Part shown: positions 3,759 through 63,564 of the stretch, in pieces | Position numbering within the stretch: position 1 is the first letter of the stretch | Layout of the letters: each line of letters opens with the position of its first letter | Virus record (IMG/VR): IMGVR_UViG_3300006168_000009 | Coordinates: 1,583-65,582 of that record | Reading direction: 5' to 3' (one strand) | DNA length: 64,000 nt | Source of the DNA: a virus | Lineage: Duplodnaviria; Caudoviricetes | Program-made: the position numbers and the translations under genes | The notes under the pieces: model-generated | Databases searched by the model: none | What the model was told of the DNA's origin: nothing | The model's input: only the letters and a program-made list of their open reading frames with translations

Positions 3759-3761
3759 GCA

Positions 3762-4556: not shown

Positions 4557-4570
4557 AGGAGGCATGAGAA

Positions 4571-16020: not shown

Positions 16021-16421
16021 TACTTGACCTCCTTTGCGCCAACAAGTTCTGCGATGTGTTTCAGCACATCAATATCAGCATTAAAAAATGCTTGGTTCCA
16101 AAACCACCTGTCATCGTAGTCAGCACGCTTGTACGGCTGGCAGGCTGGGTCGTTCCACACCCTGTCCCAACGTTCCTGGTACTGCTCGTCATGGCGTTCA
16201 AGCGTTTTGGTGATGGCCTGTGTCAACTTGCCACGCTCCATACCATACCCATCGTCGTTCCGAGCAAAGAACTGGTTGGCTGTCTCACATTCCTCATAGC
16301 ACACAATGCCGTTGTTGTAGATGATGATGCCGCCCTCGCACTCCACCTCGGTCATGGCCGGGATATTGACGGGGCCGCAGATGACGTTTTTCTTTAAGCG
16401 TCTATGCGCAATGTACTTCAT
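16020..16421 (-). CDS. Hypothetical protein overlapping the end of the DGR RT
   Basis: 133-aa ORF with SD, 20-bp overlap with RT. Confidence 0.6.
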   Translation of the reverse strand: MKYIAHRRLKKNVICGPVNIPAMTEVECEGGIIIYNNGIVCYEECETANQFFARNDDGYGMERGKLTQAITKTLERHDEQYQERWDRVWNDPACQPYKRADYDDRWFWNQAFFNADIDVLKHIAELVGAKEVK

Positions 16422-17571: not shown

Positions 17572-17822
17572 AGGTTGTTATTCGCTCTTCGTACAGATGT
17601 CTTGTAGGGTGCCGTCTAATCTGCTTAGCTCTTACACATGAAACGGGGTAAGGCACGTCTCCCGCCATGCACGCTCGGTTACCCGGCGGCGTTCGTGCAA
17701 GAGCATCAAAGAGCAGTTTCGGATTTTCATCACGGGAAGTATTTCTCCTTTCGTAAAGGTCGTGTTTCACTCTTTTTTTGAGCTACTGTGGTTGACCCAA
17801 AACCATTTCTGGTTTACGAAAT

Positions 17823-17945
17823 CCGGGGCGAGCCCATTGGAATTGTTGGCGTTGTTATTGTTCGCGTTGCCGTTGGTGTTGACATTGCAGAAATTGTTGT
17901 TGTTGTTGTAATTAGGAGAACGCTCCCACCAGTACGCAGTCGAAC
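17823..17945 (-). repeat. DGR template repeat (TR)
   Basis: 123-bp copy of the VR containing 17 AAY codons. Confidence 0.95.
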
Positions 17946-18009
17946 ACACGGAGGAACAAAAACCCCCAACCGACAGGTTTTACAGAAATACACCCATAGA
18001 AATCAAAAC

Positions 18010-18465
18010 TTACCTCCCTTTGTCACTTTTCAGAACATTGGTGAGCAGACCATTCTCGGCATCGATAAGTTCGCCAAGTTCCTGCGCCATACGCTCCAGT
18101 TTTTTCTTTGCGTCAGATGACGAAACCGCACTCCCATTCCCGCTTGTAAAGCATCCTGACGGGTTTGTCATCATCAGCTCGTAACAATGGGCGAGGTGCA
18201 CATCGAGCGCCATAAGGGCGGCTCTGGATTTAAGTAAGTATTGCTTGCGAAGTTCCTTTCTGGTTTCATCCGAGGGAAAAATACTGTTCGCTTTTTCAGC
18301 GTTGTCTAAGACCTCTGCGGCGAGCCCTGACACAGAATCTGCGACAAGCCTGGAATATCTGGATGAAAGCCGAGACAGGAAGTTGATGGTCTGAACATAA
18401 ATCTTGTTTGCCGTGTTGATGAACTCGGCTTTGCTTTCAGACCGGTGGGCCTTCAAAACTGACAT
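18010..18465 (-). CDS. avd: DGR accessory variability determinant (Avd-like four-helix protein)
   Basis: MSVLK..RSESK.EF N-terminus, helical, between target and TR; start after SD GAAAGGAG. Confidence 0.8.
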   Translation of the reverse strand: MSVLKAHRSESKAEFINTANKIYVQTINFLSRLSSRYSRLVADSVSGLAAEVLDNAEKANSIFPSDETRKELRKQYLLKSRAALMALDVHLAHCYELMMTNPSGCFTSGNGSAVSSSDAKKKLERMAQELGELIDAENGLLTNVLKSDKGR

Positions 18466-18647
18466 GAACTCTCCTTTCGTTCTGTTTTGGATATTTGCCA
18501 TGGCAACCCTAATCACAAAGGGGGGTCATGAATATAGCCTCGTCTGCAAGAAAGCGCAGCGAGGCTGATAAGCACACATGGGGAGGGGGATGGGGCCCAC
18601 TCCGAATCGCAAAGGGGGGTCACCCATCCCCGTTGTTGATTGAACTC

Positions 18648-18663
18648 GCCCACTGTCGTGGGC
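18648..18663 (-). other. DGR target-recognition hairpin
   Basis: GCCCAC-GACA-GTGGGC about 20 bp downstream of the target stop; GRNA-type loop. Confidence 0.75.
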
Positions 18664-18683
18664 TTGATGACTCCGATGCAGGA

Positions 18684-45704: not shown

Positions 45705-46718
45705 TTAGGCAATCTCGTAACGGCCAATACCGGCGTTGCCGCCAGCCAGCACGATACCCATGCCATACTTCTCGCCGTACAGGTACTCCTGGGTCAGGTC
45801 ACCATTGGTCATGGGGTCACCCATGAGAACAATGGGGTTGCCCTCATACACGCACTTGATGGGCTTGTCATCACCAGCGATGATGGTCAGGATGTCGTCA
45901 TCCAGCACAAACTCGGTAGAACCGACCTTGTGGCGCTGGGGAGTCACAACCACGGGAGTGCCGTAGAACTTGCCGTAGTAGCCCATATTATACAGGTCGC
46001 TCTTGGAATCGGTGCCCTGAATAGAGGGAGCCAGATTACGAACGGCCTTCTTGGTGCCGATGATGGTTGCAGGCTTGCCACCAGCAGCAGCCTCAACATG
46101 GTTAATCAGCTCCAGCAGCTCGTCCTCATCATACGCACCGGCAGTGGGGAAGTAGGTCACACCGCCAAAGTCCTGTGCGGTGGCACCGCTCCACAGAGTG
46201 TATACGTCGTTCAGCAGCTTCTGACGGAAGGACTCAGACACCTTGTTGATGAACTGGTTAAAGTCCACACGACCAGCCAGGACACGGTTCAGCTCCTCGT
46301 AAATCTTCACAACTTTCAGAGAAGTCGGAATAGACACTTCGCTGATACCGCTCAGGCGCTGCCGACGGATACCCTGAGTACCATCTGCGGCCTCGGACAC
46401 AACAAAGAGATTGCTGTCTTCAATCTCAAAAATGTTCTTGTCACCCTCCGCCACATTGCGGAAATCGACCAGAGCGTTGAAATACTCATCGCCCTGAAGA
46501 CCCTCAACAACAGTACGGCTCAGGACTTCCTCAATCAGAGTGAACAGCCCGCTGCACTTACCGTCGCGGATATTCTTATAGTTCAGGGTCGTGCTGCCGC
46601 CGTTAGCGTCAACAAGAGCCTTTTGCAGCAGCTCCATGGACTGGCCCACAGAATACTGCTCAACGTTGCCGTGATATGCGTCAACAGCAACCTTGACAAT
46701 GTCTTTCATTTCAGCCAT
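45705..46718 (-). CDS. Major capsid protein (HK97 fold)
   Basis: 337 aa, strong codon bias, position after protease/scaffold and decoration genes. Confidence 0.85.
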   Translation of the reverse strand: MAEMKDIVKVAVDAYHGNVEQYSVGQSMELLQKALVDANGGSTTLNYKNIRDGKCSGLFTLIEEVLSRTVVEGLQGDEYFNALVDFRNVAEGDKNIFEIEDSNLFVVSEAADGTQGIRRQRLSGISEVSIPTSLKVVKIYEELNRVLAGRVDFNQFINKVSESFRQKLLNDVYTLWSGATAQDFGGVTYFPTAGAYDEDELLELINHVEAAAGGKPATIIGTKKAVRNLAPSIQGTDSKSDLYNMGYYGKFYGTPVVVTPQRHKVGSTEFVLDDDILTIIAGDDKPIKCVYEGNPIVLMGDPMTNGDLTQEYLYGEKYGMGIVLAGGNAGIGRYEIA

Positions 46719-46735
46719 TACTGATACCCCCTCTC

Positions 46736-47233
46736 TTAGCCTTCGGTCTTGTCAATCTTGATGGTGTAGTAGGTGTAGCGCCCCACCACCTCAATATCAG
46801 CACACTCGCCCAGGCCAGTCCCAGCGGCGTCAATCTTGCCACCGGCACCGATGCCAACCTTGGCGCCCTTGGTGGGGACAGTGCCGCCAACAAAGCCCTC
46901 TTTGGTCACGGAGAACAGATTGCGACTGCGGGGAATGTAACCACGGGTGGCCTTGCCCGCCTCGTTGATAAACTCGTCCAGATTCTTCTTGCGCTCGTCA
47001 TACATGACCTCAACGCCAGCCACAATGGCGCACTCGTTCAGGTCTGCGCCAGCACTGGCGGCAACAGCCTTCATCACTTCACGCTGGCCGTCCTCATAGC
47101 CCTCCAGCTTGACAATGACACCGTTCTCAACCTCGGCAACCTTGCCATTGGCGTCATAGAAGCGCAGAGACACAAGGTCGGCGGGCTGCTTAGTACCGCT
47201 CATCAGGTCGGTACGAATAACCGTATATGCCAT
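46736..47233 (-). CDS. Head decoration/capsid-associated protein
   Basis: VENG.IVKL, G...V..GF beta pattern; directly before the capsid gene. Confidence 0.65.
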   Translation of the reverse strand: MAYTVIRTDLMSGTKQPADLVSLRFYDANGKVAEVENGVIVKLEGYEDGQREVMKAVAASAGADLNECAIVAGVEVMYDERKKNLDEFINEAGKATRGYIPRSRNLFSVTKEGFVGGTVPTKGAKVGIGAGGKIDAAGTGLGECADIEVVGRYTYYTIKIDKTEG

Positions 47234-47247
47234 AACTCGTTCCTCCT

Positions 47248-47272
47248 TGTAGATTATTTAATTATGTTGATT
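47248..47272 (-). promoter_or_regulatory. Repeated 25-bp motif, copy A
   Basis: TGTAGATTATTTAATTATGTTGATT directly before the SD of 46736-47233. Confidence 0.7.
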
Positions 47273-50586: not shown

Positions 50587-52335
50587 TTACTTGATTTTTG
50601 GAGGCTTAAACATGAAGATGTTGTCCTCAAAACTTGCCCCCCGATGCCGCCCCAGCTTGCTCTCAAGCTGCGTTGCAACATAGTAGTTATAGCTCAAACT
50701 GGAGTAACGGTCTTTTCGTCTACCTGTTTTCTCAAACATCCTGACACGACCGCCAGACTCCTCATGCTGCAAATTAACAAGTTCGTCAATCAACAGCGTT
50801 GTGTGCACATATGGCATTTGCAGCTTTACTTTCTCTGATGGGGTGAGTGAGCCATATCCCTTGAGGTCGGACAGCAGCGTTTCGCCATCATACTCAGTAA
50901 CAAGCAGCCTTATCTTTCCGCTCCTGAATCCTTCACGAAGCAGCACAGCACACTCAGAGTTAAGCGCTGGTGTAGCCTTAATCGCCCATATCACTTTGTC
51001 TGCCCCTTTGACTGTGCATCGCTCAGCCATTTCTGGGTTGTTGTAGCAGGAAAGTGCTGGGTATATCTCGCCACTGTCTGGGTCTACCATGTCACGGACA
51101 AGCGCATCATAAACGCCAAGACCAAGCCCAGTACAGTCCAGCACAATATAGTCACAGGCGAACTCATCGTACAACTTCCGTATCACGAGTGCCTGGTCTT
51201 CCGTGTGTAGGCCCTCAAACGTATCGCAGTACACAATATTGCTTGTGTATCGTCCTGCCTTCGTTGGGAGCATCTGGTTGACAAAAATTGCGGTTGCGTC
51301 ATTGTTGTGCTTCTTACTCGACATCAGGGCAATATCAGCAGACAAAATACGCTTCTCACCAAGCTGCTTGGGAGGTATCTTAACCTTTTGGCTGTTACCA
51401 ACTTTCACCGACAACTCGTCAGGAAGCATGGGATATTTGATATGACGTACTTTAGAGATGCTGTCAAAATTGAAGAATGCCCCGGCCTCACCGCCGAGCC
51501 ACATAGCTTCCATCTCCATCTTGAATTTCAGCTCATTAAAGTCCGCCTCAAGCATATCGCTCTCAACGTCCTCTCGGAACATACGCCCTTCCTGAATTGC
51601 AAGCTCATATGGAAATCCGCACACAAACGCTCCGCGTCCACCGCTGAGCATAGTACGGAAGTTAGACAGCATCTGGTTGTAAGACCAATGGTCTTTGAAG
51701 AACGCAGAAGACAGGTAGAACTGCATATTGGGCTCCTTCGCCCGTTCCAACTGCACTTCCTCTTTTGTCAACTCGGAGTATGGCGGTTCACGCCGTTCGG
51801 TCAGAAACTTTTTCAGAACCGTACTGATGGTATCCTGCTTCACAAGTCGAAACTCATCTACGACAAGAAGATTGGCACGGTTACCACGGGCGGTGTCTGC
51901 CGCCGTAACAACCTTGATATAGCTGCCATTTTTGAACATTATCTTTGCATCCTGGCCAGAAAATTTTGTCTCCTTGAAGTCAATCTCGTTCTTCAAATTT
52001 GGAGAACGTGGAATCAACTCCGTTTGAATCTTTTCCAGAATCTGCAATGCCTGTCCTCTTGTACCAGAGGTAAGAACGACCTTGCTGCCAGGGTAAAGAA
52101 TGCACCGCACGCATGAGAATATAGCCGTAATAAACGTTTTACCCATACCACGGGACGCTATCCATAAGAAGATAACGTTGGCATTCATCAGGCACAGCAC
52201 AGCATACTGATACCATTTAAGGTAGGTGATGCCCAGGTATTCCTTCACAAAGGCGTCGATATTCTCTCTGTAATAGCTACCCCAGACCGCCATACCCTCC
52301 AGTACACGCTCTCGCCTTGCCTGCTTCTCATTCAT
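50587..52335 (-). CDS. terL: Terminase large subunit
   Basis: ASRGMGKT Walker A, LVVDE Walker B, ADIA and KDRYSS nuclease motifs; start MNEKQ. Confidence 0.9.
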   Translation of the reverse strand: MNEKQARRERVLEGMAVWGSYYRENIDAFVKEYLGITYLKWYQYAVLCLMNANVIFLWIASRGMGKTFITAIFSCVRCILYPGSKVVLTSGTRGQALQILEKIQTELIPRSPNLKNEIDFKETKFSGQDAKIMFKNGSYIKVVTAADTARGNRANLLVVDEFRLVKQDTISTVLKKFLTERREPPYSELTKEEVQLERAKEPNMQFYLSSAFFKDHWSYNQMLSNFRTMLSGGRGAFVCGFPYELAIQEGRMFREDVESDMLEADFNELKFKMEMEAMWLGGEAGAFFNFDSISKVRHIKYPMLPDELSVKVGNSQKVKIPPKQLGEKRILSADIALMSSKKHNNDATAIFVNQMLPTKAGRYTSNIVYCDTFEGLHTEDQALVIRKLYDEFACDYIVLDCTGLGLGVYDALVRDMVDPDSGEIYPALSCYNNPEMAERCTVKGADKVIWAIKATPALNSECAVLLREGFRSGKIRLLVTEYDGETLLSDLKGYGSLTPSEKVKLQMPYVHTTLLIDELVNLQHEESGGRVRMFEKTGRRKDRYSSLSYNYYVATQLESKLGRHRGASFEDNIFMFKPPKIK

Positions 52336-53395
52336 TGACACCGCCCTCACTTTGGCCAGCGTCGCCGAAGATATCGGACAAGAAGCTATCGTCGTCCTCC
52401 TCTGCATACTCTGGGAACTCGACGCGATATTTGTTGATGGCGTCCTCATACATTTGGCAATAGCTATTTCTCAAGCCAACCATTTTGCAGGCGTGTCCAA
52501 GAAACCAGGTGGTAACATTTCGGATAATTCCACTTTGGTCTTTCAAATCGTCTGGTGTAGTCGGAAGCGGGCGAGCATTCTCCCATTTCTGGATGCCGAC
52601 ACCAAGCGGCATATTTTCCAGGTCAGAGTCCGCCATCATATCCTTTTGCTGGACAGGCTTTAGATTGGCACTGCCAAGCAAATCATTGAGTGCCTTCACG
52701 TTTTTCTCAACACTACGCCCAGCCGCTCGGTCATGTGCGATATCAACTTCCAGGCCGCATATCTGCCTGATGAGAGTTTCTGTACCAACATCCGGGACGA
52801 AATCCTTTGGATATTTACCGAGCCAATAATGGCGGCGCTCTTCAAGTTCCTCATACATTTTTGTGCTGTACCCAGAACCCCAGAACAATCGAATTTCGTC
52901 TGAAACTTCGTTGTATTCTTCCTCAGCATCATCAAGCAGTGGTTCAATCCCATCTTCGTCCTCAACATACTGCGGACGTTTTGCGGCCTCTGCCTCCTCA
53001 CGGACGATTGTGTCATCGAAAGTCTTATCGATGTATCGTGTAAGGTTCGTTTTACCTATGTAAGACCTGATTCGAGATTGAACACCAGCGGTTTTATCCA
53101 CCATATCGTAGATAGCCTCGTCCCAATACAGGTCAAACTTCATGCACATCCGGCGCAAAGCATCCTTGTCGCCAAGTTTGCTGCGGTAGTCGTCGTACAT
53201 CTCCTCAACACAGTCGCTGCACCATGGGAGATATCCAGACTTGCGGTACATTGGACTATGGCTAACAGGGAAAAAACCTTTTCGTCTGCTGTATGCCGTA
53301 CCACATCTGCAACAATAATACTTTTGTCCGCTGGCTGTGGTCTGTGAGGCGTCAGTTGTCTTTTCTAATTTCCGTCTTTTGGGGGCATCCGCCAA
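52328..53395 (-). CDS. Putative terminase small subunit with N-terminal Zn finger
   Basis: CCRCG...WCSDC; overlaps terL start. Confidence 0.55.
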   Translation of the reverse strand: MADAPKRRKLEKTTDASQTTASGQKYYCCRCGTAYSRRKGFFPVSHSPMYRKSGYLPWCSDCVEEMYDDYRSKLGDKDALRRMCMKFDLYWDEAIYDMVDKTAGVQSRIRSYIGKTNLTRYIDKTFDDTIVREEAEAAKRPQYVEDEDGIEPLLDDAEEEYNEVSDEIRLFWGSGYSTKMYEELEERRHYWLGKYPKDFVPDVGTETLIRQICGLEVDIAHDRAAGRSVEKNVKALNDLLGSANLKPVQQKDMMADSDLENMPLGVGIQKWENARPLPTTPDDLKDQSGIIRNVTTWFLGHACKMVGLRNSYCQMYEDAINKYRVEFPEYAEEDDDSFLSDIFGDAGQSEGGVNE

Positions 53396-53704
53396 TTACA
53401 TCAACCCCCTTTTCGTGTTATCTTCCCAAACCTTCACCGCACGTCGCATCCCGTTACCAGGATAGAACCGAGGAATCCAGTGTGCTGGGACATCAACACG
53501 TTCGCCTGTCTGCGGATTTGGGCAGCTACGAGCCTTTCGCTCCAAGATATCGAAACACCCAAAGTTTCGGATTGAAACCGTGTTCCCGTTCTCAAGGTTC
53601 TCCAATATAGTGCAGACAAAATCATCGATGATACTTGTTGCTGCCTTTTTTGTATATCCCTTCTCAACAAGCTGCTGAATCAGGTCACTCCTTTTAATGT
53701 CCAT
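53396..53704 (-). CDS. hup: HU-like histone-like DNA-binding protein
   Basis: VSIRNFG.F....RKAR...NPQTGE...P...P.F.PG. Confidence 0.92.
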   Translation of the reverse strand: MDIKRSDLIQQLVEKGYTKKAATSIIDDFVCTILENLENGNTVSIRNFGCFDILERKARSCPNPQTGERVDVPAHWIPRFYPGNGMRRAVKVWEDNTKRGLM

Positions 53705-53723: not shown

Positions 53724-54767
53724 TCACAGGTCTGCAAGAGACTTCTGTGCATCCGTTTTGATTTCACCATTTTCATCAAAGTATTGCGAAATCTGTTCCT
53801 CTGCACTCATGTCCTTGTAGACACGCACCATGTCAGCAGACTCCCAACCGACAATATCCTGGATTACGTTGTCTGGGAGACCGAGCTTCGCAAGGTGGGT
53901 CGTAAAGTAGTGTCTCAGGCTATGCCAATAAAAGTCCTCACCGGTCATCCGGCTGAAGGTGTTAGCCCAACTGTTCAGCGTCGTATCGCTCATCTGTTCT
54001 TTGTCATTCCCTGTCGCCGGGAATAGCCACTCGCTCTCTATGCCAAGCTCGCTGCGCTGCTTCATCCAAGCATCGAAATATGGCTTGAACTTTTTCGCCA
54101 GCGTATAGCAGTGAATAAACTTCCCGAGACCAAACCCCTTCGTTTGAATTGGCTCACTCGTCTTATAGAGAACGCCACCGCATACCAGGTTTTCGTCCTG
54201 GAAGTCACCAACACGGAATCGACACAGCTCTGCTTTACGCCTACCACTGCACATCGCCAACGCCAAGGCGCAAGCCTTCTTGTACTGACCACTCTCAGTC
54301 AGCTTGTCCAGCAACTCATCGAGCGCCTCATCGCTCCACACGGTCTTCTTCCGAACCTGTTGCATAGCGGGGTTTTCCACCTTGCGGACGACAGAACGAA
54401 AGTCTTTGAACTCATCTTCATCGTCCAGCATATTGGACACGAAGTTACTCATGGAAGAGATAGCGGATTTCAAACGCCGCACACGGGCTGGAGAGTTGCC
54501 ATTCTCATTGATAAGCCAACTCTGATAGGAAGCATAATCACGCTTCGTAATCTTTGGGAAAAACTTGTTATTATTGTGGGTGAGGTTCCACACCCAGAAA
54601 ATGTCGATATCGTTATCATACCCGGCAATCGTCTTGGGGCTGCGCTGAACAGACCTCAAATAATCTAAGAAGTCCTGCTTTAGCCTCATATTGTCCGGGT
54701 TGACCTGGCTCAAAAGCTCAGGGCTTGTGATATCGTTCTGTTTTGTTTTTCTTGGCATCAAAGCCAC
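53724..54767 (-). CDS. Tyrosine recombinase (XerC/D-like) with core-binding domain
   Basis: SGRRKAEL, HSLRH, VGW, VRVY catalytic residues; N-terminal SPKTI..Y..D domain. Confidence 0.88.
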   Translation of the reverse strand: MALMPRKTKQNDITSPELLSQVNPDNMRLKQDFLDYLRSVQRSPKTIAGYDNDIDIFWVWNLTHNNNKFFPKITKRDYASYQSWLINENGNSPARVRRLKSAISSMSNFVSNMLDDEDEFKDFRSVVRKVENPAMQQVRKKTVWSDEALDELLDKLTESGQYKKACALALAMCSGRRKAELCRFRVGDFQDENLVCGGVLYKTSEPIQTKGFGLGKFIHCYTLAKKFKPYFDAWMKQRSELGIESEWLFPATGNDKEQMSDTTLNSWANTFSRMTGEDFYWHSLRHYFTTHLAKLGLPDNVIQDIVGWESADMVRVYKDMSAEEQISQYFDENGEIKTDAQKSLADL

Positions 54768-54787: not shown

Positions 54788-54816
54788 TTGTATTCCTGAA
54801 CCGTAAATGCTATAAT
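54788..54816 (+). promoter_or_regulatory. SigA-type promoter with extended -10
   Basis: TTGTAT-17 nt-TATAAT, TGn before -10. Confidence 0.7.
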
Positions 54817-54859
54817 GAAAATACAATCAACAACTTTTCCAAATGAGGAGGTCACATTA

Positions 54860-55393
54860 GTGAAACGACTAATTACCATGTTGTGTATTCTCGCCACTGT
54901 ATTCACCCTATCTGCTTGTTCCACAACCTGTAAGTACGAAGTCGCAAATGGAGTGTGTGGAGAGAAGGTAGACTCAGGGGACTACTGTGCAAAGCATCGC
55001 TGCAATCTATGTGAGAACTCTATTACATCTGGGTCATCTTATTGTGATGAACACAGGTGCCAATTCGACATAGGCTATGGAAGATGTTCCAAAGGAATTG
55101 GAATCTCAAATCTCAAGGATGGTGAAATATATTGCAATACACATAAATCCATTGAGGACATAGACGAGTTCAAAGAAGCAAAGGACATTGCGTCAACATG
55201 GTGTAATACAATCGCCGCACAATCTGCCGGAACGCTTTTTTCTCCGTTCAGGTTCACTGACAACTTTTATGTTGGTGTTTCAACCTATAAATTTGAAGTT
55301 GAAGATGTTGATTCCCCGCATCGGGATGGATATGTTATCGTAAAACGAAACTCAGATGGTGAGCTTGAATGTGAAGGAATGGAATACAACTAA
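54860..55393 (+). CDS. Cys/His-rich lipoprotein (moron)
   Basis: SD GAGGAGG + GTG 54860; LSAC lipobox; YCxxHxC repeats; AT-rich. Confidence 0.75.
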   Translation: MKRLITMLCILATVFTLSACSTTCKYEVANGVCGEKVDSGDYCAKHRCNLCENSITSGSSYCDEHRCQFDIGYGRCSKGIGISNLKDGEIYCNTHKSIEDIDEFKEAKDIASTWCNTIAAQSAGTLFSPFRFTDNFYVGVSTYKFEVEDVDSPHRDGYVIVKRNSDGELECEGMEYN

Positions 55394-55397
55394 TGTA

Positions 55398-55430
55398 GTA
55401 AGGCCGCATTCAAGCGGCCTTACTTTTTTT
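55398..55430 (+). terminator. Terminator of the lipoprotein gene
   Basis: AGTAAGGCCGC...GCGGCCTTACT + T run. Confidence 0.85.
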
Positions 55431-55507
55431 TGGCGACTATAGCCGGACTCGAACCGGCGACCTCCAACGTGACAGGCTGGCGTTCTAACCAACTGAACTA
55501 TATAGCC
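55431..55507 (-). tRNA. tRNA-Asp(GUC)
   Basis: Cloverleaf, anticodon loop CT-GTC-AC, GGTTCGAGT, encoded CCA. Confidence 0.92.
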
Positions 55508-55510
55508 ATG

Positions 55511-55586
55511 TGGTTGCGGGGAGGGGATTTGAACCCCTGACCTACGGCTTATGAGGCCGCTGAGCTAACCGCTGCTCTACCCCGCA
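55511..55586 (-). tRNA. tRNA-Met(CAU)
   Basis: Anticodon loop CT-CAT-AA, GGTTCAAAT, CCA. Confidence 0.88.
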
Positions 55587-55590
55587 GTAT

Positions 55591-55676
55591 TGGTGGGAGA
55601 GGTTGGATTTGAACCAACGCAGCCCGAAGGCGCCTGATTTACAGTCAGGTGTAATTGACCACTCTACCACTCTCCC
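55591..55676 (-). tRNA. tRNA-Tyr(GUA)
   Basis: Anticodon CT-GTA-AA, long variable arm, CCA. Confidence 0.92.
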
Positions 55677-55680
55677 ATAG

Positions 55681-55757
55681 TGGTGATGCGTATGGGGCTT
55701 GAACCCATAAATTCCGCCTTGAAAGGGCGGTGACTCTACCAATTCGTCCAACGCACC
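55681..55757 (-). tRNA. tRNA-Glu(UUC)
   Basis: CCGCC-CTTTCAA-GGCGG, CCA. Confidence 0.88.
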
Positions 55758-55759
55758 AT

Positions 55760-55836
55760 TGGTACTCCCAACGAGACTCGAACTCGTATTACCGGCTTGA
55801 GAGGCCAGCCTCCTATTCCATTTAGAGGATGGGAGC
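55760..55836 (-). tRNA. tRNA-Glu(CUC)
   Basis: CTGGC-CTCTCAA-GCCGG, AGTTCGAGT, CCA. Confidence 0.85.
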
Positions 55837-55840
55837 AAAT

Positions 55841-55916
55841 TGGCTCCTCCTGCTGGACTCGAACCAGCGGCATCTTGATTAACAGTCAAGCGCTCTACCA
55901 ACTGAGCTAAAGAGGA
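55841..55916 (-). tRNA. tRNA-Asn(GUU)
   Basis: TAGCTCAGTTGGTAGAGC, CT-GTT-AA, CCA. Confidence 0.92.
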
Positions 55917-55961
55917 ATATAAAAGGGCCGCCCCATGTAGAGGCGACCCGTGTGGGTTTCT

Positions 55962-57116
55962 CTAATTCAGACCTACATTGTACGAACAGCGCACGCCGCT
56001 CTCATCGCATACACAGACCATCTGTTCCGGCCTACCATAGATGCGCTTCTGGACACAATAGTCATCCATGCCAAGAAAACTACCAGCCATGATAGTTCTA
56101 ATTCCCTGAACATCATCCATCTTGCAATGATGAAGGTGGCCTGACAGCACCGCATACAACGGTTTGCGTACCATAGTTTGCAACGCCTGTACTTTGCTGG
56201 CAGAGCCGTCGAAGTCTCCATGCACGCCGCAGTAGGTCTTGCCGCGTACATCGATGAGATACATCGTCTCGTCAACTTTCTCGCCGCCGCCAATAATGAC
56301 ATTATTGAAGTTTTGAAGACGAGCCGACAGATACCACTCAACAAGGTCATCAAGTCGCTCGCTCACCAGCGCATTGTCTTTGTTCGGGTCAAGTCGGCTG
56401 TGGTTGCCAGCAACACTGACAAAGGTGACAGTGGCGAAATGCTTGCTCAGTTCTGCGATGAACTCTGCAATCAATTCGGACACACCCTTAACCTGTTCGA
56501 TAACATTCTCCTTGTTGGTCACTGCGATAGACTTGTGAATGTTACCAGAAATCTCATCGCCATTCGCCCAGACAATACAATTCTCACTGCTGTGTGTCTG
56601 TGCAATCTGGATGATGCGGTCAAGATATCGGCGCATCATATCCCGGCAAATGTCGGAATTATATGTATTCCAATAGTTATCCACAGTTGCACCGTAGTGG
56701 ATGTCGTTCAGACTGACTAACAGGTCATTATCCGATGGCACGATTTCATGGTACTCATAGTCCAGCCGAGGAAGGTTCCCCGATTGGATTGCTTCAACCA
56801 AAATCTCGTTCAGTTCTTCCTGACGTGAGCGTTCACGAACCAGTTTGTTGTAGGCGTTGCGCTGGTCAAAGAACTTCTGGCGCTCTACCTGAAGCTCGAT
56901 TTTCTTTCGGTCAAACTCTGACAACATATCTGCGGAGCGGATGGCAGCCTCGCCCTCGCGCTCAATGGCATCAATGATGGCTTTCATGCCGTACATTCTC
57001 TTGCGAACTTCGCTGGAATTGAAGCAGTTGCCCTCACCGAACAGACGCTCGCTAAGCTCTGCGTAATCATCGTCAATGGTGCGGTCAACCAGCTTACCAA
57101 TCACGATGTCACGCAT
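55962..57116 (-). CDS. Calcineurin-like metallophosphoesterase with N-terminal coiled coil (YonJ-like)
   Basis: DIHYG, GDEISG, GNHSR, HGD, GHLHH. Confidence 0.85.
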   Translation of the reverse strand: MRDIVIGKLVDRTIDDDYAELSERLFGEGNCFNSSEVRKRMYGMKAIIDAIEREGEAAIRSADMLSEFDRKKIELQVERQKFFDQRNAYNKLVRERSRQEELNEILVEAIQSGNLPRLDYEYHEIVPSDNDLLVSLNDIHYGATVDNYWNTYNSDICRDMMRRYLDRIIQIAQTHSSENCIVWANGDEISGNIHKSIAVTNKENVIEQVKGVSELIAEFIAELSKHFATVTFVSVAGNHSRLDPNKDNALVSERLDDLVEWYLSARLQNFNNVIIGGGEKVDETMYLIDVRGKTYCGVHGDFDGSASKVQALQTMVRKPLYAVLSGHLHHCKMDDVQGIRTIMAGSFLGMDDYCVQKRIYGRPEQMVCVCDESGVRCSYNVGLN

Positions 57117-57468: not shown

Positions 57469-58254
57469 TCAACACGTTTGGTGCAGCTCTGTCCGTAAAG
57501 CCCTTCTTCGCCGCATAACGGACTCGACTTTCTGCTTGGTATGCAGTTCGACAGCGCAGCTTGGGCAATACTTCTGTCGCCGTCCACGGGCCGGTTCCTG
57601 GGTCTTCACGGTGATGCCGCAGTTCACGCACTCGAAGTACGCCCCGCCGTAGTGCTTCAAATACTGATAACCAAGGTTGCGAAAATCCTGAATATGTATC
57701 GCCAATTCTCCAGGCTCTATGAACATGACCTGCACATTCAGGTTGTCAATCTTCTTGGAGAACCGAATGAGGCCAGCGTTCCTGAGTTCAGCGAACATGG
57801 CGCTCTGCCGCCGAATAGACGTGTTGATGTTAGCCATCTGCATAACTTCTTTGTCCGAGCTATTCGCCCAATGATTGTTCTGCTCAGATACGGCATCCCA
57901 ATACTTTGCCACGCATAGGAGCGTAAACGCCAGCCGCCGAATTTGTTTGCCGCCAAGAGCCTCAATACGGTGCAATTCCTTGTCGGTGATATCAACTCCG
58001 TCAATTTGAATGAGCGGATATTTACCAGCATTCTTAGCCACTTTATCCAAAAGTTCCGACCAATGAACCAAGGATACCTGCGGGTCACACTGTAACATGA
58101 AGGCATCCAGCAGCTTGCGGATTTCTGTTTTGCTATATCCGTTCTTCAGGTAATACTTGGCCACCCTGGTCAGTGTTTCAAGTGGCTTCTTGCCGAGGTC
58201 ATGACTGTCAATCATGTGCTCGGCCCACTCATACTCGTTGAGGACTATGCTCAT
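57469..58254 (-). CDS. Putative DNA-binding protein with C-terminal Zn ribbon, coupled to the RNAP gene
   Basis: ATGA overlap with the RNAP stop; CVNCG...YCPSCA. Confidence 0.65.
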   Translation of the reverse strand: MSIVLNEYEWAEHMIDSHDLGKKPLETLTRVAKYYLKNGYSKTEIRKLLDAFMLQCDPQVSLVHWSELLDKVAKNAGKYPLIQIDGVDITDKELHRIEALGGKQIRRLAFTLLCVAKYWDAVSEQNNHWANSSDKEVMQMANINTSIRRQSAMFAELRNAGLIRFSKKIDNLNVQVMFIEPGELAIHIQDFRNLGYQYLKHYGGAYFECVNCGITVKTQEPARGRRQKYCPSCAVELHTKQKVESVMRRRRALRTELHQTC

Positions 58255-60983
58255 ATCTCTCCTCCAATCATAGCTTGTTTTACGGCGAACCTATTGCCGC
58301 CAAATTGGACTTCACCATTGGGCTCCAAAGCAGGGTATGAGATAATGCCACCGCTTCTGGAAAGCAGATTCTGGATAATTTCGTCTCCGCACATCTCCCA
58401 TGCAAACCGCTTTGTTGAACTCTTCTGATAGCAGATATCCAGAACAATGTCACAGAGGACGAACCGGTTAGGGCAAACCCTGGCACACTCCTGCTCGAAC
58501 TCAGCACGCATCTCCATCATTCGTGAGAACGTGTCATACTCGTCCACACGCTCGCAGTTGGCGAAGACAACATAGGTGGACAAGCGCTTGTTGTAGCTCT
58601 CATAGAGCTTGGCAATGGCGTTGAACTGAGAACGGTTGTACTCGACGCCGCTCTTCATGATGGTGTAGTCGAACTCCGTTTCAGCATTGTGCCTGCCGAC
58701 ATACCCATCGAACTCCTGCTCAAACCGTCTGCAAATTTTATTCATCACACAGTCATTATTGCTGACTGGCATCCGGGAGCGGTAGTACCGCAGGAAATCG
58801 TTCTGCCTGTCGGTGCGCTTCTCCTCTGGGATATCCATCAGTTCGTCAACCGTCATGCCGAACTCACGCATGGCATTTTTGTTCGTGTTCTTTATGTATG
58901 TGTTGTACTGCTTCATCAACGCCGGATAGATGATGCGCATGAAGTAAGGCTTTTTGTCGGCGACAAGACTGAGGTAGTAACGCTTGGTGTCGGCATCCTC
59001 AATCATGTTCACACTGTGGCGGTCGTGCCACTCCCTCGGCATTGGCTTAGCTATGATACCCTTGGCCTTGTCGATGGAGTTTTGCTGAAAGAGCTGTCCA
59101 CACTTGATGCGGTAGTCCAGTTCGATATACTCCTTGGAGCCCCTCTCATACTTCGCCTGAATGTCGAACATGGAGGTAATCCAGTTGGTTGTCTTCCCGA
59201 TGTCGTCGCCAAAGCTGTCGATGTTGGCCTGAATGGAATCTGCCTCACTCACGATTTTCTTCTGAGCTTTCCTCTGAACGCACATTAGAGCAGGGAGCTC
59301 CTTCAGTTTTCCGACCAACACTTCATTATCAGTCAACATGACGAGGTCGCCATCCTTGTCCATGCCGTTGAGGGCGTGGGCCGCAGTATCCCAGGAGTTA
59401 AACAGGGTACAAGTCTTCATGTACTGATACCAGTGAGATGCTGCCTCGCTTCGATGCGGACGGACAAGCCGAATGTTGTTATGGCAGGTCATCGGCGCAC
59501 GGAAACAGGCCAGCTTCTCGGCACCCTGTCTGCACCAATACTCGTTGTAAATCTCACCGGCTTTCAGCAGCCCGGTGACCTCCAGGCCGAAGATGTGTTG
59601 ACACAAAGAGTACGGGTCGCCACACACGATAGAGTAGTTGCCATGAACCTTGAGCACGCCTACCTTGGCCTCGTTGATGCGGTTCTTAATCATCTGGTAG
59701 ATGCTGCTCTGGATATATGGGTCATCCAACATTTTCGGCTCAATCATGATTGCCTTGGCAAAATCATTGTCGATTCGCTGGACGTTCTCTTCATTCAGAC
59801 CAACGCCTTTCAAAAACAGAATGGTCTTGACCGGGTCAGCATACAACACATCCCGAATCTCATTCATAGTCGGTGCGATGAGCCTTTCGATATCGTCGTT
59901 GTCCAGGTCGTAGCTTTGGATAAACTGGTAGTTCAATGTACGCTCGCGCTCCAGTTCACGGGGGCAAGTTTTGGTTACACCGAATGTATAGTGATTTTCA
60001 AGACAGTTGCGGACATAATCTTCGCAGCTATCGTAGGAATCCCACAGCTTTAACATAGAAGTGGTCAAAATCATCTCAACATTTCGCACATCCACATCGT
60101 GGCCCCACGCATCCTTTACGATGAACCCTCCAGCTACGTTCTCGGCGAAGTCTACGAAGTCAAACGTAAAGAGCATCCCCTTCTCCCATGAGAACCGTGT
60201 GTTGACACCGCTTACCATATAGTCGAGCCCCAACTCCTCACTCCATCGACTTGCCAATGACGGCAGCATCAGACCATACCCATCGGACTCATCAAGCTGA
60301 ACCAATGCCTGCTTGCGCTCCTCCATAACTGGCTCACCGTCAAGTTCGTCGTTGAGGTAAATGATGTCGGACAAGAACTCTGTCTCACAGTCGCTCACCA
60401 CCAGGATGCCATTAGGCATGGACATCGGCGTAGAAGCACTGCACGTCAGAGCCTTGTACGCCTCCAGCTTGGCCGGAACCATCTCCTTCTCCAGATTACG
60501 GCCATTGTCGATGCGGCGGCGGATTTCCTCGGCATGGCGCTCACTGATGAACACGATGGTCTCGTTCTTCACACCGCCATTGGTGCCCAGTAAGCGCTGA
60601 TATTTCAGTCCATTGATACTGAACCCTTTACAGGCCCGACGATAATCCTTCTCTTTGTCGATAATGACACACAGGTAGTCGGGCTTAAACTGGATATCAT
60701 CCAGCTCGGAGTATAGCTGCTTGACCGCCTTTCGGTTTTGGACACTATTCGGCTCCTTGCGCAGCCTCCGTATCTCAGCCTTGATTTCCCTGGCCTTACT
60801 TTCGGCATCGGTGATACCGTTCAGCTCGTCCAGCCAGCGAAGCACCTGACTGTCGGCCAGCGAAATGACCTCATCGTTTCGACGGGCCTCGGCGATGGGC
60901 AGCGTGAGCCGCCATTTGGCCTTCCGCAGCCTGCTGCTATGCAGCTTGAATATGTACTTCTGACATACTAACTGTTTAGCCAG
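58251..60983 (-). CDS. YonO-like single-subunit (double-psi beta-barrel) RNA polymerase
   Basis: NGMDKDGD metal-binding DxDGD motif, FRAP, SDGYG, KGML motifs; frame open to a CTG at 60983 with SD GAGGTG. Confidence 0.8.
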   Translation of the reverse strand: MAKQLVCQKYIFKLHSSRLRKAKWRLTLPIAEARRNDEVISLADSQVLRWLDELNGITDAESKAREIKAEIRRLRKEPNSVQNRKAVKQLYSELDDIQFKPDYLCVIIDKEKDYRRACKGFSINGLKYQRLLGTNGGVKNETIVFISERHAEEIRRRIDNGRNLEKEMVPAKLEAYKALTCSASTPMSMPNGILVVSDCETEFLSDIIYLNDELDGEPVMEERKQALVQLDESDGYGLMLPSLASRWSEELGLDYMVSGVNTRFSWEKGMLFTFDFVDFAENVAGGFIVKDAWGHDVDVRNVEMILTTSMLKLWDSYDSCEDYVRNCLENHYTFGVTKTCPRELERERTLNYQFIQSYDLDNDDIERLIAPTMNEIRDVLYADPVKTILFLKGVGLNEENVQRIDNDFAKAIMIEPKMLDDPYIQSSIYQMIKNRINEAKVGVLKVHGNYSIVCGDPYSLCQHIFGLEVTGLLKAGEIYNEYWCRQGAEKLACFRAPMTCHNNIRLVRPHRSEAASHWYQYMKTCTLFNSWDTAAHALNGMDKDGDLVMLTDNEVLVGKLKELPALMCVQRKAQKKIVSEADSIQANIDSFGDDIGKTTNWITSMFDIQAKYERGSKEYIELDYRIKCGQLFQQNSIDKAKGIIAKPMPREWHDRHSVNMIEDADTKRYYLSLVADKKPYFMRIIYPALMKQYNTYIKNTNKNAMREFGMTVDELMDIPEEKRTDRQNDFLRYYRSRMPVSNNDCVMNKICRRFEQEFDGYVGRHNAETEFDYTIMKSGVEYNRSQFNAIAKLYESYNKRLSTYVVFANCERVDEYDTFSRMMEMRAEFEQECARVCPNRFVLCDIVLDICYQKSSTKRFAWEMCGDEIIQNLLSRSGGIISYPALEPNGEVQFGGNRFAVKQAMIGGEI

Positions 60984-60999
60984 TATCGTTCACCTCTCT

Positions 61000-61024
61000 T
61001 GTTGATTATTTAATTATGTTGATA
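61000..61024 (-). promoter_or_regulatory. Repeated 25-bp motif, copy C
   Basis: TGTTGATTATTTAATTATGTTGATA directly before the RNAP SD. Confidence 0.7.
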
Positions 61025-61034
61025 TGGTGAAAAA

Positions 61035-61235
61035 TTAAGCGTCATCCTCTAACGTGTAGCGGAACCATTCCTTGTAGAACTGCTGGCGCTCGTTCTCTAT
61101 GTATTCATCCAAGTTACCCTCATCGGTCAGCGGAGCAAAGTATTCACACACTTTGTTGGCTGGGCACACGTCTCCATGGAGACAATTCTTACAATTCCTA
61201 TTCAATCGAGCATCCTCCTCGCTTAGTATTATCAA
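61035..61235 (-). CDS. Small Cys-rich hypothetical protein
   Basis: CKNC..GDVC....VC. Confidence 0.55.
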   Translation of the reverse strand: MIILSEEDARLNRNCKNCLHGDVCPANKVCEYFAPLTDEGNLDEYIENERQQFYKEWFRYTLEDDA

Positions 61236-62454
61236 TCCAGTTGATGAGCAGCTCTCTCATACGGCTGCTCGGCACATATAGGTTAATAGGCTTATCGTCT
61301 CGGATAGCGCTTCGCCAAATCCATTGGAGCATCTCAGACAGGGCAAAGGCATCCTGGTCAATCTCAATTCCACGGGATGCAAAGAACTTCGTCACATTGG
61401 GGTCAGCAAAACGGTTGACCATATAGGCCACGTCCGTCTTGTCCCTGTACTCATTCGTTGCACGGGCGCTTATCTGCAAAAAGTTATTGCGATATCTCCC
61501 GCTCTCGGCAATCAGCTTGGACTGCTCCTCTTTGAAGCAAGTCCAGAGCCGGGTGTTGCTGTTCCCGCCGGAGCCCTCAAAGAAATTCCGTAGACCACGC
61601 CGAAGCAGTTTGATATCCTTATCACTCCTGCCACGACGAGCGTACCAGTTCTTGGACAGCGCATACTTACCGTCCCCCGGTGCGTTCGACTGCGGCTTAT
61701 CGATGATGTTGATGAGATGACAATAATCCAATGGCGGCGGGGCGTCTGGCCTATCGGAAAAATAGTAGCCGTCATCGTCCCTCTCAACGCCAACGATGTG
61801 ATACTCGAATCCAAAGAAATCGAGATAGGCTTTCTGGTACTGCCCCTCAAACATATAGGTCAGCATAAACACCTCGTCAAACGCCTGAAGCATATATGGG
61901 TTCATGATGTTGAGCAGCGCACTGTCCAGTCGAAAGAGTGAGTTGGTGTCTGCCGCCGCCTTATATCCTGAGAACTTCCCAGAATAATCTTTGTCCAGCC
62001 AGCGCAGAAGTCCGCCGTCATGCTCCTCGGCCAAATGGTTTACAATCAAATCAAAGTCCTTGGATGTAATGTTGAACCGCTCAATGACCTCGATGGTCTC
62101 GTCGATGATGAGCGAGTAGTTATACTTGCGGACGAGTTCAAGAGTTTCTTCGTCCATCAGGTAAAAGAGTGAATGGGTTGCGGCGATGTTGTGGCCCTTC
62201 CTCATGTGGGTCTTCAGCTCGATAGACTTGCTGAGGTGGTCGCTGTCTGGCTGCTCGAAGTCGCACATCTCGCAGATGCGCTCAACCTCCTTGAGGTACG
62301 GTGTTATGTATAGGAACCGCTTGCGTCCCTTGTATCGGTTCATGTAGCGGATGGCGGCGGAGGACTTGCCACGCCCCATCCGGGCATCCACTACGGTAAT
62401 AGGTTTCACTGGGGCACCACGCCCTTTCTGTTTATTTTTGGCCAACCAAGCCAT
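61198..62454 (-). CDS. SF2 helicase-like P-loop ATPase (YonV-like)
   Basis: DARMGRGKS Walker A, LIIDET Walker B, QWIWRSAIR motif VI-like. Confidence 0.7.
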   Translation of the reverse strand: MAWLAKNKQKGRGAPVKPITVVDARMGRGKSSAAIRYMNRYKGRKRFLYITPYLKEVERICEMCDFEQPDSDHLSKSIELKTHMRKGHNIAATHSLFYLMDEETLELVRKYNYSLIIDETIEVIERFNITSKDFDLIVNHLAEEHDGGLLRWLDKDYSGKFSGYKAAADTNSLFRLDSALLNIMNPYMLQAFDEVFMLTYMFEGQYQKAYLDFFGFEYHIVGVERDDDGYYFSDRPDAPPPLDYCHLINIIDKPQSNAPGDGKYALSKNWYARRGRSDKDIKLLRRGLRNFFEGSGGNSNTRLWTCFKEEQSKLIAESGRYRNNFLQISARATNEYRDKTDVAYMVNRFADPNVTKFFASRGIEIDQDAFALSEMLQWIWRSAIRDDKPINLYVPSSRMRELLINWIDNTKRGGCSIE

Positions 62455-62675: not shown

Positions 62676-63497
62676 TTACCCTACCAAGAAATCTCCTTCT
62701 ACAAGGTCGCTATCAACCAGATAGTTGCAGGATACGCTACCGAGGTTCAACCTGCGGTAGGCTTCATCTATCTCCTCGCTGGTGATGCCGATGTAGTCCA
62801 GAGTCTGTGCGGCGGAAGAATGGCCGAACATCTTCTGGAGGAGCAGGAGCTTCCGTGGGTCGTTGCCACTCATGACCATCTGGTGGTAGGCAAACGTCTT
62901 ACGCAGCGTGTGGGTAGACATCCGATTGCCAAGCCCAAGGTCACGGGCGATACCCTTCAGAATGTTGTCAACGCTTCCCCTATGGATAGGTTTGTTCACA
63001 CTGGCTCCGTTATTGGATTCGCTGCGGAACATGAAGTCGCTGAGCCGAACGCTGGGGGTGTTCTCCAGATAAAGCGTGACCGCTTCGACAACAGCAGTGT
63101 TGACGGTTATGTAACGGTTGCGCTTGTGCGTTCTGGTGTTCTTGGTCTTCTTCTCCAGAATGGCAAACCTGTCACGGAAGGTGTAATCATCATTGATGAT
63201 GTGGGTGAACCGGAGAGAGGTGAGGTCGCTCACTCGAAGGCCGAAGTTGATGCCAACGATGAAGAGCATATTGTCTCTGAAGCGCTTCTGGCCAATAAGG
63301 AACTGGGAGACACGGATGATGTCCTCCATATCCTTGATGGGTTCGGCAGCGTGCTCGTTGGCAAGCTCGTGGGTGACCTCTTCAGTCGCAGGGGCGATGA
63401 GACCAGCCTTGAGCTTACGGCAGCTCTTCTGGACGGCACTGATGTCGATGACACCTGTATTCGTATTAGTGAGATTCAGGTTGATGATTTGCGCCAT
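62676..63497 (-). CDS. Tyrosine recombinase catalytic-domain protein lacking an obvious core-binding domain
   Basis: FGLRVSDL, HTLRKT, FGHSS, TLDYIG. Confidence 0.85.
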   Translation of the reverse strand: MAQIINLNLTNTNTGVIDISAVQKSCRKLKAGLIAPATEEVTHELANEHAAEPIKDMEDIIRVSQFLIGQKRFRDNMLFIVGINFGLRVSDLTSLRFTHIINDDYTFRDRFAILEKKTKNTRTHKRNRYITVNTAVVEAVTLYLENTPSVRLSDFMFRSESNNGASVNKPIHRGSVDNILKGIARDLGLGNRMSTHTLRKTFAYHQMVMSGNDPRKLLLLQKMFGHSSAAQTLDYIGITSEEIDEAYRRLNLGSVSCNYLVDSDLVEGDFLVG

Positions 63498-63529
63498 GGG
63501 TGATTCTCCTCTCTGTGTGACCGGCTCGA

Positions 63530-63554
63530 TGTAGATTATTTAATAGGGTTGATT
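63530..63554 (-). promoter_or_regulatory. Repeated 25-bp motif, copy B
   Basis: TGTAGATTATTTAATAGGGTTGATT, 22/25 identical to copy A. Confidence 0.65.
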
Positions 63555-63564
63555 GGATATTATG

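Follow-up and report, generated by a model that had tools for sequence, protein, structure and literature searches.

A predicted YonO-type RNA polymerase with a near-cognate start codon and a translationally coupled partner gene in a phage of gut Clostridia

Introduction

Among the smallest known relatives of cellular RNA polymerases, the sole characterised bacterial or phage member is YonO of phage SPbeta (NP_046615; Forrest et al. 2017, PMC5467207). YonO transcribes the late operon of SPbeta and is strictly DNA-dependent; its processive DNA-dependent RNA synthesis is abolished by mutation of the aspartate triad (PMC5467207). Its promoter and its need for a helper protein were left open in 2017 (PMC5467207), and we found no later paper settling either question. 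Here we describe the gene of a YonO-like protein, located at positions 58251..60983 (minus strand) of a 64,000-nucleotide (nt) stretch of phage DNA, hereafter referred to as the window, which comprises bases 1583-65582 of a 65.6-kb linear IMG/VR virus record (IMGVR_UViG_3300006168_000009; completeness estimate 55%).

The window protein is a direct homolog of YonO over both catalytic barrels, with the same aspartate triad and the same first-barrel motifs. Both genes lie ahead of late genes and have a YonJ-like exonuclease gene and a YonN-like HU gene as neighbours, and both phages appear to be large and temperate. The two proteins differ in length (839 amino acids (aa) for YonO versus 910 aa) and in start codon (TTG versus CTG). 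Furthermore, YonO ends in a zinc ribbon, whereas here a similar ribbon ends a separate 261-aa protein with helical and winged-helix domains.

More closely related, long-form homologs (29-41% identity over 95-99% of the query) are encoded by phage c-st (CST179/178, followed by CST177), Enterocloster phages PMBT24 and CB457P/CB473P, and Bacillus phage BUCT082. In all of them a homolog of the 261-aa protein is encoded immediately downstream of the polymerase, and c-st and PMBT24 also share the gene order polymerase, partner, HU, terminase. These two phages differ from the window in having ATG starts and, in PMBT24, a canonical sigma-70-type promoter upstream. The polymerases are annotated as 'YonO homolog (N-ter/C-ter only)', 'RNA-dependent RNA polymerase' or 'hypothetical protein', and their pairing with the downstream protein is not annotated. 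Members of the long-form branch that have a separate partner already exist among GenBank phages, although the branch is undescribed there. The polymerase itself is not a new kind of system, since its family is well populated, partly annotated, and noted in c-st and PMBT24. Modestly new here are the start at a non-AUG codon, the partner with its coupled and in some cases fused gene, the way in which a repeated 24-nt motif is distributed, and intron insertions at catalytic motifs.

Identity and predicted fold of the polymerase

The minus-strand frame 58251-60983 translates to 910 residues without a stop and contains the motifs SDGYG (residues 233-237), FRAP (494-497) and NGMDKDGD (539-546), as described in an earlier sequence-only reading of the window, which had proposed a YonO-like, single-subunit RNA polymerase of a gut clostridial phage. 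The sole Pfam family reported at E <= 0.01 was RdRP (PF05183; residues 112-603, E 9e-14, 51.5 bits versus a curated cut-off of 23.8). In a BLASTP comparison the protein matched YonO, taken from the SPBc2 record, with E 3e-35 (26% identity, 512 columns, 54% of the query), and the alignment paired DKDGD with DNDGD, SDGYG with TDGCG, and FRAP with LRSP. A tblastn search of 50,697 phage records gave polymerase matches in 39 of them, including (i) c-st and six Enterocloster bolteae phages (about 40% identity over 95-99% of the query), (ii) BUCT082 (29% identity) and (iii) the SPbeta group (26% identity over residues 119-607, E 1e-28 to 4e-32). A single-protein phmmer search of PDB sequences returned nothing relevant. 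The family comprises at least 4,888 proteins in a 90%-clustered collection and 1,930 clusters at 50% identity (E <= 1e-3); proteins identical to the window polymerase over a shorter gene-call length already bear the Pfam label in public collections.

To assess residue conservation, 74 full-length representatives with 26-54% identity to the query were aligned, and this alignment also served for AlphaFold2 modelling. The invariant residues were K172, Y176, D234, G235, K268, G269, K312, Y352, R495, P497, D542, D544, D546, G596, T599, N600, R625, I637, D638 and K641. The set includes D234-G235 and K268-G269 of the beta-like barrel, which are intact and align to SDGIG..YKG of RDR2, as well as the intact aspartate triad of the beta'-like barrel (D542/D544/D546), aligned to DNDGD of YonO and DLDGD of RDR2. 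The profile of the 74 homologs also aligned its SDGxG..KG and DxDGD motifs with RDR2.

The AlphaFold2 model was obtained with high confidence (predicted local distance difference test (pLDDT) 93.3, predicted template modelling score 0.89). In a Foldseek search of the PDB the top matches were maize and Arabidopsis RDR2 and Neurospora/Thielavia QDE-1 (E 2e-20 to 4e-15), followed in rank by P32 gp64, P74 gp62, crAss-like gp66, P23-45 gp96 and bacterial beta' chains. VIA-align gave Z scores of 27-31 against QDE-1 and RDR2, with 620-650 residues aligned (model residues 4-893), of 16 for gp64 and gp62, and of about 9 for beta', Rpb1 and A190 over residues 437-754. No YonO structure was found among the PDB matches. 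There was also no T7-type chain among the matches listed, although absence from such lists does not exclude a family.

QDE-1 and RDR2 (PDB 2j7n, 7y7p, 7w82, 7rqs) share with the model the two-barrel core with DxDGD and SDGxG..KG, but are only 14-17% identical to it, are eukaryotic, act on RNA or single-stranded DNA templates in silencing, and have no phage context. The phage enzymes P32 gp64 (8f72), P74 gp62 (8f5m), P23-45 gp96 and phi14:2 gp66 (6vr4) likewise carry two barrels in a single phage-encoded chain (Z 16 for gp64/gp62, 11 for gp96 and 9 for the crAss-like gp66); they differ in their accessory domains and show 9-12% identity, and gp66 and gp96 are virion proteins. With cellular beta' and Rpb1 the similarity covers the second barrel, which contains RxP and DxDGD, plus the helix that comes after it; no other domains are common, and here both barrels are located in one chain.

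In some relatives the polymerase gene is broken exactly at D544|G545, i.e. within DxDGD, and at I637|D638, which marks these motifs as a conserved core. The inserts (L084:6671-6989 in phage c-st, interrupted at D544|G545; L102:3096-3400 and 3738-4737; L100:3615-4785) are about 0.3-1.2 kb long and do not continue the reading frame. Rfam identified a group I intron at L102:3667-3998 (88 bits). In the Enterocloster phages CB457P/CB473P the polymerase is found in two to three pieces. The insertion of DNA at active-site positions accounts for the split PHROG families (N-half and C-half) and for the 'N-ter only / C-ter only' annotations of c-st.

The gene is located upstream of the terminase-to-tail genes, on the same strand, in synteny with yonJ and yonN homologs. 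The PF05183 match, the similarity to YonO, the predicted QDE-1/RDR2 fold and these neighbours bear out the designation 'YonO-like', and the predicted structure is a two-double-psi-beta-barrel model, the fold that the sequence-only reading had singled out for checking. All features of the two-barrel family that are accessible to sequence or predicted structure appear to be present. It is thus very probable that the gene product is the catalytic chain of a YonO-type two-double-psi-beta-barrel, DNA-dependent RNA polymerase.

A conserved, overlapping partner gene

The polymerase gene overlaps a second gene of the same strand (57469..58254), which encodes a 261-aa protein, hereafter referred to as the partner. 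The ATG of an ATGA tetranucleotide is the start codon of the partner, while its TGA is the polymerase stop codon (58253-58251). In about 70 loci the polymerase stop is overlapped or adjoined by the gene of a partner homolog of 244-270 aa, at an offset of -1 to -35, most often -4. The sole exception among the related loci examined was L100, in which the polymerase gene is interrupted by an intron. Homologs occupy the same position in c-st (CST177, E 5e-24), PMBT24 (E 1e-12), other Enterocloster phages and BUCT082, and the phages with a partner homolog are exactly those whose polymerase aligns full-length.

The partner matched no Pfam family above its cut-off (RNHCP reached 23.7 bits versus 24), no Foldseek entry at E <= 0.001 and no named Atlas cluster. 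Its AlphaFold2 model (pLDDT 93.3) consists of an N-terminal helical domain, a central domain (residues approximately 88-203), a CxxC..CxxC zinc ribbon and a long C-terminal helix; the invariant residues include the cysteines C209, C212, C230 and C233. The central domain matched the winged helices of ORC2/Cdc6, TFE-alpha/TFIIE-alpha, Fur, LexA, CRP and plasmid Rep proteins.

In one lineage, found on six contigs in all, the two proteins are naturally fused (P0228, 1,173 aa, five contigs; P0272, 1,176 aa). In the fusion, residues 4-910 correspond to the polymerase and residues 920-1169 to the whole partner (hhalign probability 96.7%, E 4.5e-10, 225 columns). For YonO, no separate partner was found in a search of the phage collection; its last 45 residues form a ribbon similar to that of the partner, in a colinear match (hhalign E 7e-5, probability 63%). 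The motif W-x3-G-D-x-[IV]-x-x-N, which precedes the ribbon of YonO, marks the C-terminal end of the polymerase core both in the window protein and in P0228.

Because of the overlapping position, its conservation among relatives, the natural fusion and the ribbon similar to that of YonO, a physical and functional partnership of the two proteins is likely. If the polymerase has a subunit for DNA binding or initiation, the partner is the most promising candidate for it. The term 'single-subunit' used in the sequence-only reading may not apply here, given the translational coupling of the polymerase gene to that of a conserved partner.

The polymerase start codon

A mechanical list of open reading frames (ORFs) opened the polymerase gene at GTG 60845 (864 aa), whereas the sequence-only reading had placed the start at 60983. 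The DNA at the latter position reads AGAGAGGTGA ACG ATA CTG GCT AAA CAG. The Shine-Dalgarno (SD) sequence AGAGAGGTGA (60990..60999, minus strand) includes GGTGA, whose TGA is a stop codon in the frame of the polymerase, two codons ahead of the CTG. The reading frame can therefore begin only at ACG, ATA or CTG, and there is no ATG, GTG or TTG start between this stop and the conserved N-terminus.

Comparison of the window with 80 IMG/VR loci, in which 71 sequences could be anchored, showed that the homologous start codon is CTG in 32, ATT in 20, ATA in 15, ATC in two and ATG in two sequences, i.e. it is not ATG in 69 of the 71. The start codon mostly follows an SD sequence of the GAGGTG type at a distance of 6-10 nt, for which the automatic call gave 3-4 nt in a few loci. 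In the CTG lineages the two preceding codons vary (CCC ATA, GCG AGT, ACT ACC), which leaves CTG as the only shared candidate, and in one ATT lineage (L082) an in-frame TAA immediately precedes the start. In c-st and some other homologs (several 90% clusters) an ATG is found at the same N-terminal position (MSKQ..., MILAKQ...); PMBT24 also uses ATG, while SPbeta yonO uses TTG. On this comparative evidence we conclude that the predicted translation start is CTG 60983 (60983-60981), as in the sequence-only reading, and that the clade keeps a near-cognate, weak start codon.

The automatic model, in which translation would begin at GTG 60845 and the 46 upstream codons would be an untranslated leader, has in its favour that GTG is a canonical start codon and that both the mechanical ORF list and public gene calls (P0002-P0007) agree on 864 aa. 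It is nevertheless extremely improbable. Codons 2-46 are under strong purifying selection (mean pS 0.90, pN 0.12, pN/pS 0.13 in 51 distinct sequences), with synonymous sites saturated, and residues 11-50 of the model have a pLDDT of 91-98. At residue 47, where the window has the GTG, relatives vary between V, T, M and I, so that the GTG is no conserved start, while it is the CTG/ATT/ATA codon that follows a strong SD sequence and coincides with the ATG of distant homologs.

The in-frame stop and the strong SD sequence directly before the non-AUG codon led us to reject the idea that the N-terminus stems from a frameshift further upstream or from an alternative genetic code. The window also encodes a Met-CAT tRNA, which resembles the elongator or Ile2 type, not the initiator: its positions 1 and 72 are paired, and its anticodon stem lacks GGG:CCC. 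Lacking initiator features, it offers no explanation of the non-AUG start.

Near-cognate start codons support a few percent of AUG initiation or less, and initiation factor IF3 discriminates against them, as in the case of the AUU of infC. With its weak start codon the polymerase would thus be made in small amounts, and the meaning of this codon is likely to be a low, tightly limited polymerase supply. Plausibly, such a sparing supply would stop a lysogen from firing its late genes by leakage.

In public collections, six clusters that are 100% identical over their length, together with other large clusters of 864-869 aa, have their start placed 42-46 residues after the one proposed here (P0002-P0007, P0094, P0117); one of these late-starting clusters has 5,044 member sequences. 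For the window protein and the lineages inspected at the DNA level, the late calls result from a true start that is not ATG, GTG or TTG. Automatic calls in public databases therefore cut 46 conserved residues off the polymerase.

Distribution of a repeated 24-nt motif

The window contains three minus-strand copies of the motif ATCAAC-N3-ATTAAATAATC-WACA, versus 0 expected by chance. One of them (ATCAACATAATTAAATAATCAACAAG, 60998..61023) is located directly upstream of the polymerase SD sequence and abuts it. The second copy (47246..47271) directly precedes the SD sequence of gene 46736-47233, which lies in the structural module downstream of the portal gene and a gene for a 534-aa protein; a homologous copy precedes the counterpart of this gene in L014. 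The third copy (63525..63555) is found in the leader of a tyrosine-recombinase-like gene (62676-63497, minus strand; 273 aa, with a short N-terminus) that heads an operon, just downstream of the best sigma-70-like site of the region (63593-63565, TTGAAG-17-TATAAT).

Most relatives have a recognisable form of the motif ahead of the polymerase gene, in lineage-specific variants such as ATCATAGCAATTAAATAAAATAC or ATCATGCTAATAAAATAATTTAC, and the other copies in a relative genome match the variant of that genome. Five complete or near-complete relatives contain four to six copies each, versus none for the reversed pattern. On the polymerase strand there are three copies, one at the polymerase gene, one about 2.6 kb upstream of it and one about 13 kb downstream of it, while on the opposite strand two copies precede (i) an operon encoding an HD-phosphohydrolase, Erf, a PD-(D/E)XK exonuclease and DnaB and (ii) the DnaG primase gene. 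Each inspected copy that heads a gene is located 1-20 nt before the SD sequence of that gene. Not every copy in the relatives heads a gene, since a few precede a hairpin or abut a sigma-70-like promoter. In one case the motif begins only 9 nt after a terminator hairpin, which leaves no room for another promoter in between. No copy was found in the upstream regions of c-st and PMBT24. A scan for sigma-70 sites between 50 and 64 kb of the window identified 16 sites versus 16.5 expected by chance, a count that does not speak for host-type promoters as a class.

In SPBc2, an AT-rich stretch, TCAAC..TTAATTAATTATAG, was noticed downstream of yonN, from which we draw no claim; a YonO start site has been published at position 2225998 of B. 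subtilis 168.

Alternative explanations

Judged by its sequence and placement, the motif (ATCAAC..ATTAAATAAT..TACA) is the best candidate for the promoter of the polymerase, but this assignment is tentative and falls short of being probable. It is favoured by the contiguous conservation over 24 bp, the position at the 5' edge of leaders, the copy right after a terminator, and the persistence of the motif in 13 of 53 relatives without a recombinase-like gene nearby. The motif might equally well be an operator, analogous to the SPBRE of SPbeta, through which a phage repressor would control host RNA polymerase promoters of lytic operons. The host enzyme would then switch on the polymerase gene after derepression, and the promoter(s) of the polymerase itself would be something other than the motif. 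In SPbeta, the tyrosine-recombinase-fold repressor MrpR binds the repeated SPBRE at about ten promoter regions, including that of yonP, just upstream of yonO (PMC10516654). Here, the recombinase-like gene 62676-63497 lies 2.6 kb upstream, and its own leader contains a motif copy that follows a sigma-70-like site; such a gene is present at about -2.5 kb in 40 of the 53 relatives, and two genes of the tyrosine-recombinase fold flank the polymerase module of the window. The product of 62676-63497 could be a regulator of the MrpR kind. Nearly all motif variants, moreover, contain a -10-like hexamer (AATAAT, TAAAAT or TATAAT). On the other hand, relatives that have no recombinase-like gene within 10 kb (e.g. 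L046, L067) keep several motif copies, and recombinase-like proteins matched only Xer/integrase chains in the PDB by sequence, not MrpR. The -10-like hexamer lies 5-8 nt before the SD sequence, so that a transcript starting about 7 nt downstream would begin inside it; the copy 9 nt after a terminator excludes a separate promoter between the two, and sigma-70 sites are no commoner than chance. The operator explanation thus appears possible, if somewhat doubtful in its turn. The sequence-only reading had stated that candidate promoters were visible in the window. A repeated motif is indeed present, but its use by the polymerase does not follow, an operator role being about as likely.

Several of these observations weigh against the promoter reading, namely the MrpR precedent, the recombinase-like gene at the head of the operon, and two relatives in which a motif copy abuts a canonical TTGACA-17-TATAAT promoter. 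Since copies precede replication genes, i.e. early or middle genes, and the polymerase gene itself, the motif is not a simple late promoter. Other points count against the wider reading of a DNA-dependent polymerase with a dedicated partner and a limited supply. The partner has modest fold matches, with VIA Z scores of 6-8 and Foldseek E values of about 0.1, and winged helices are very common. The link between the YonO ribbon and the partner is short (32 columns, 63% probability), and low translation from a non-AUG start is a general expectation carried over to this host. DNA dependence and late-gene specificity would be carried over from YonO alone, which is only 26% identical, and GenBank calls close relatives 'RNA-dependent RNA polymerase'. 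Taken at face value, this last label, given to the homologs of Enterocloster phage PMBT24 and a Thomasclavelia phage, would mean that the enzyme copies or amplifies RNA like QDE-1 and RDR2 and does not transcribe phage DNA. The name of the Pfam family (RdRP) and the eukaryotic RNA-dependent RNA polymerases at the top of the structural matches point the same way. The GenBank names, though, derive from the Pfam label and not from experiment, and YonO, to which the window protein is directly matched (E 3e-35), is strictly DNA-dependent (PMC5467207). Moreover, the gene heads the structural genes of a double-stranded DNA phage and has the same neighbours as yonO. RNA dependence is therefore very unlikely, and DNA-dependent transcription remains the preferred function.

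Proposed mechanism and significance

After induction, the operon would be transcribed from the sigma-70-like site 63593-63565 or from the motif; the polymerase would be translated sparingly from its CTG, and the partner by coupling. Polymerase and partner would then use phage DNA as the template for transcription, in the way that YonO transcribes the late operon of SPbeta, and by analogy with YonO (PMC5467207) their targets would be the packaging, head and tail genes located downstream on the strand of the polymerase gene itself.

A more speculative extension, which we regard as rather unlikely in its entirety, is that YonO-type polymerases are not truly single-subunit and that a winged-helix/zinc-ribbon initiation factor, the 24-nt motif and the weak start codon together form a self-amplifying circuit. 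The factor, reminiscent in its architecture of TFE/TFIIE-alpha, would be fused to the polymerase in some lineages and reduced to the C-terminal zinc ribbon in YonO. The pair would recognise the motif before the SD sequences of its own gene, of the replication operons and of the structural-module gene, and the obligatory CTG/ATT/ATA start would throttle the circuit against accidental firing in lysogens.

The window leaves the definition of the family unchanged, but the added observations make the open question of YonO-type transcription directly testable. Hundreds of gut phage genomes constitute a natural system in which the conserved coupled or fused partner, the repeated motif and the weak start codon can serve as handles, and the polymerase and its partner may help to show how YonO-type polymerases find promoters.

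Genomic context and host

The minus strand carries almost all genes between 11.6 kb and 63.5 kb of the window. Upstream of the polymerase gene lies a gene for a 418-aa protein of phrog_2467 (61198..62454, minus strand), which precedes the polymerase gene in 53 of 53 relatives with enough flanking sequence. Downstream, on the same strand, the phosphoesterase, HU and terminase genes named in the sequence-only reading were all identified: a calcineurin-like phosphoesterase/exonuclease (Metallophos; 55962..57116), homologous to SPbeta YonJ (BLASTP E 2e-17); an HU-type DNA-binding protein (53396..53704), homologous to YonN (BLASTP E 6e-25, 42% identity); and the large terminase (50587..52449). The terminase gene marks the start of the structural (late) genes and is followed by the portal gene and further structural-module and tail genes, including gene 46736-47233 and the next gene, 45705-46718, to which our searches assigned no function. 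That reading had missed the overlapping partner gene and the tRNA block. The polymerase operon is closed by a strong hairpin with a T run, resembling an intrinsic terminator (55925..55949, minus strand). Six tRNA genes (Asn, Glu-CTC, Glu-TTC, Tyr, Met-CAT, Asp; 55431..55916, minus strand) come straight after it. A tyrosine integrase gene (53724-54767, minus strand) is located upstream of the HU gene.

Contigs of metagenome-assembled genomes that carry close relatives of the polymerase (63-92% identity) bear the titles Oscillospiraceae, Acutalibacteraceae, Clostridia, Eubacteriales, Ruminococcus and Tyzzerella, and originate from human, mouse and deer gut; some are 187-359 kb long, and relatives reside in contigs of Clostridia as proviruses. 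A few were binned as Bacteroidota, which is probably wrong. In the IMG/VR classes one relative is a provirus, and another is a complete genome of 116 kb with terminal repeats. These contig titles and IMG/VR classes support the assignment of the phage as a temperate SPbeta-like phage of gut Oscillospiraceae/Clostridia, about 100-130 kb in size, with roughly 120 kb as the best estimate. The gut clostridial origin proposed in the sequence-only reading thus agrees with the relatives, which are mostly gut Oscillospiraceae and other Clostridia.

In the vicinity of the polymerase gene Rfam detected no known RNA in the window. Phage c-st carries a RAGATH-18 RNA (L084:10965-11025, 64 bits) just upstream of its HU-like gene and downstream of the polymerase module, with no Rfam counterpart in the window. 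Between the tRNA block and the integrase gene, a lone plus-strand gene (54815-55393, 192 aa) is followed by its own strong terminator (55397-55424); it matched no family in a PHROG search and may be a moron. The window further contains a diversity-generating retroelement (16402-20774), comprising a minus-strand reverse transcriptase gene (phrog_1423; 16402-17571), an Rfam RT-2 RNA (17564-17800, 144.6 bits) and a pair of 128-nt repeats (17818-17945 and 18693-18820, 85% identical). The pair looks like the template and variable repeats of the element, and the variable copy is located at the C-terminal end of a 696-aa ORF (18684-20774).

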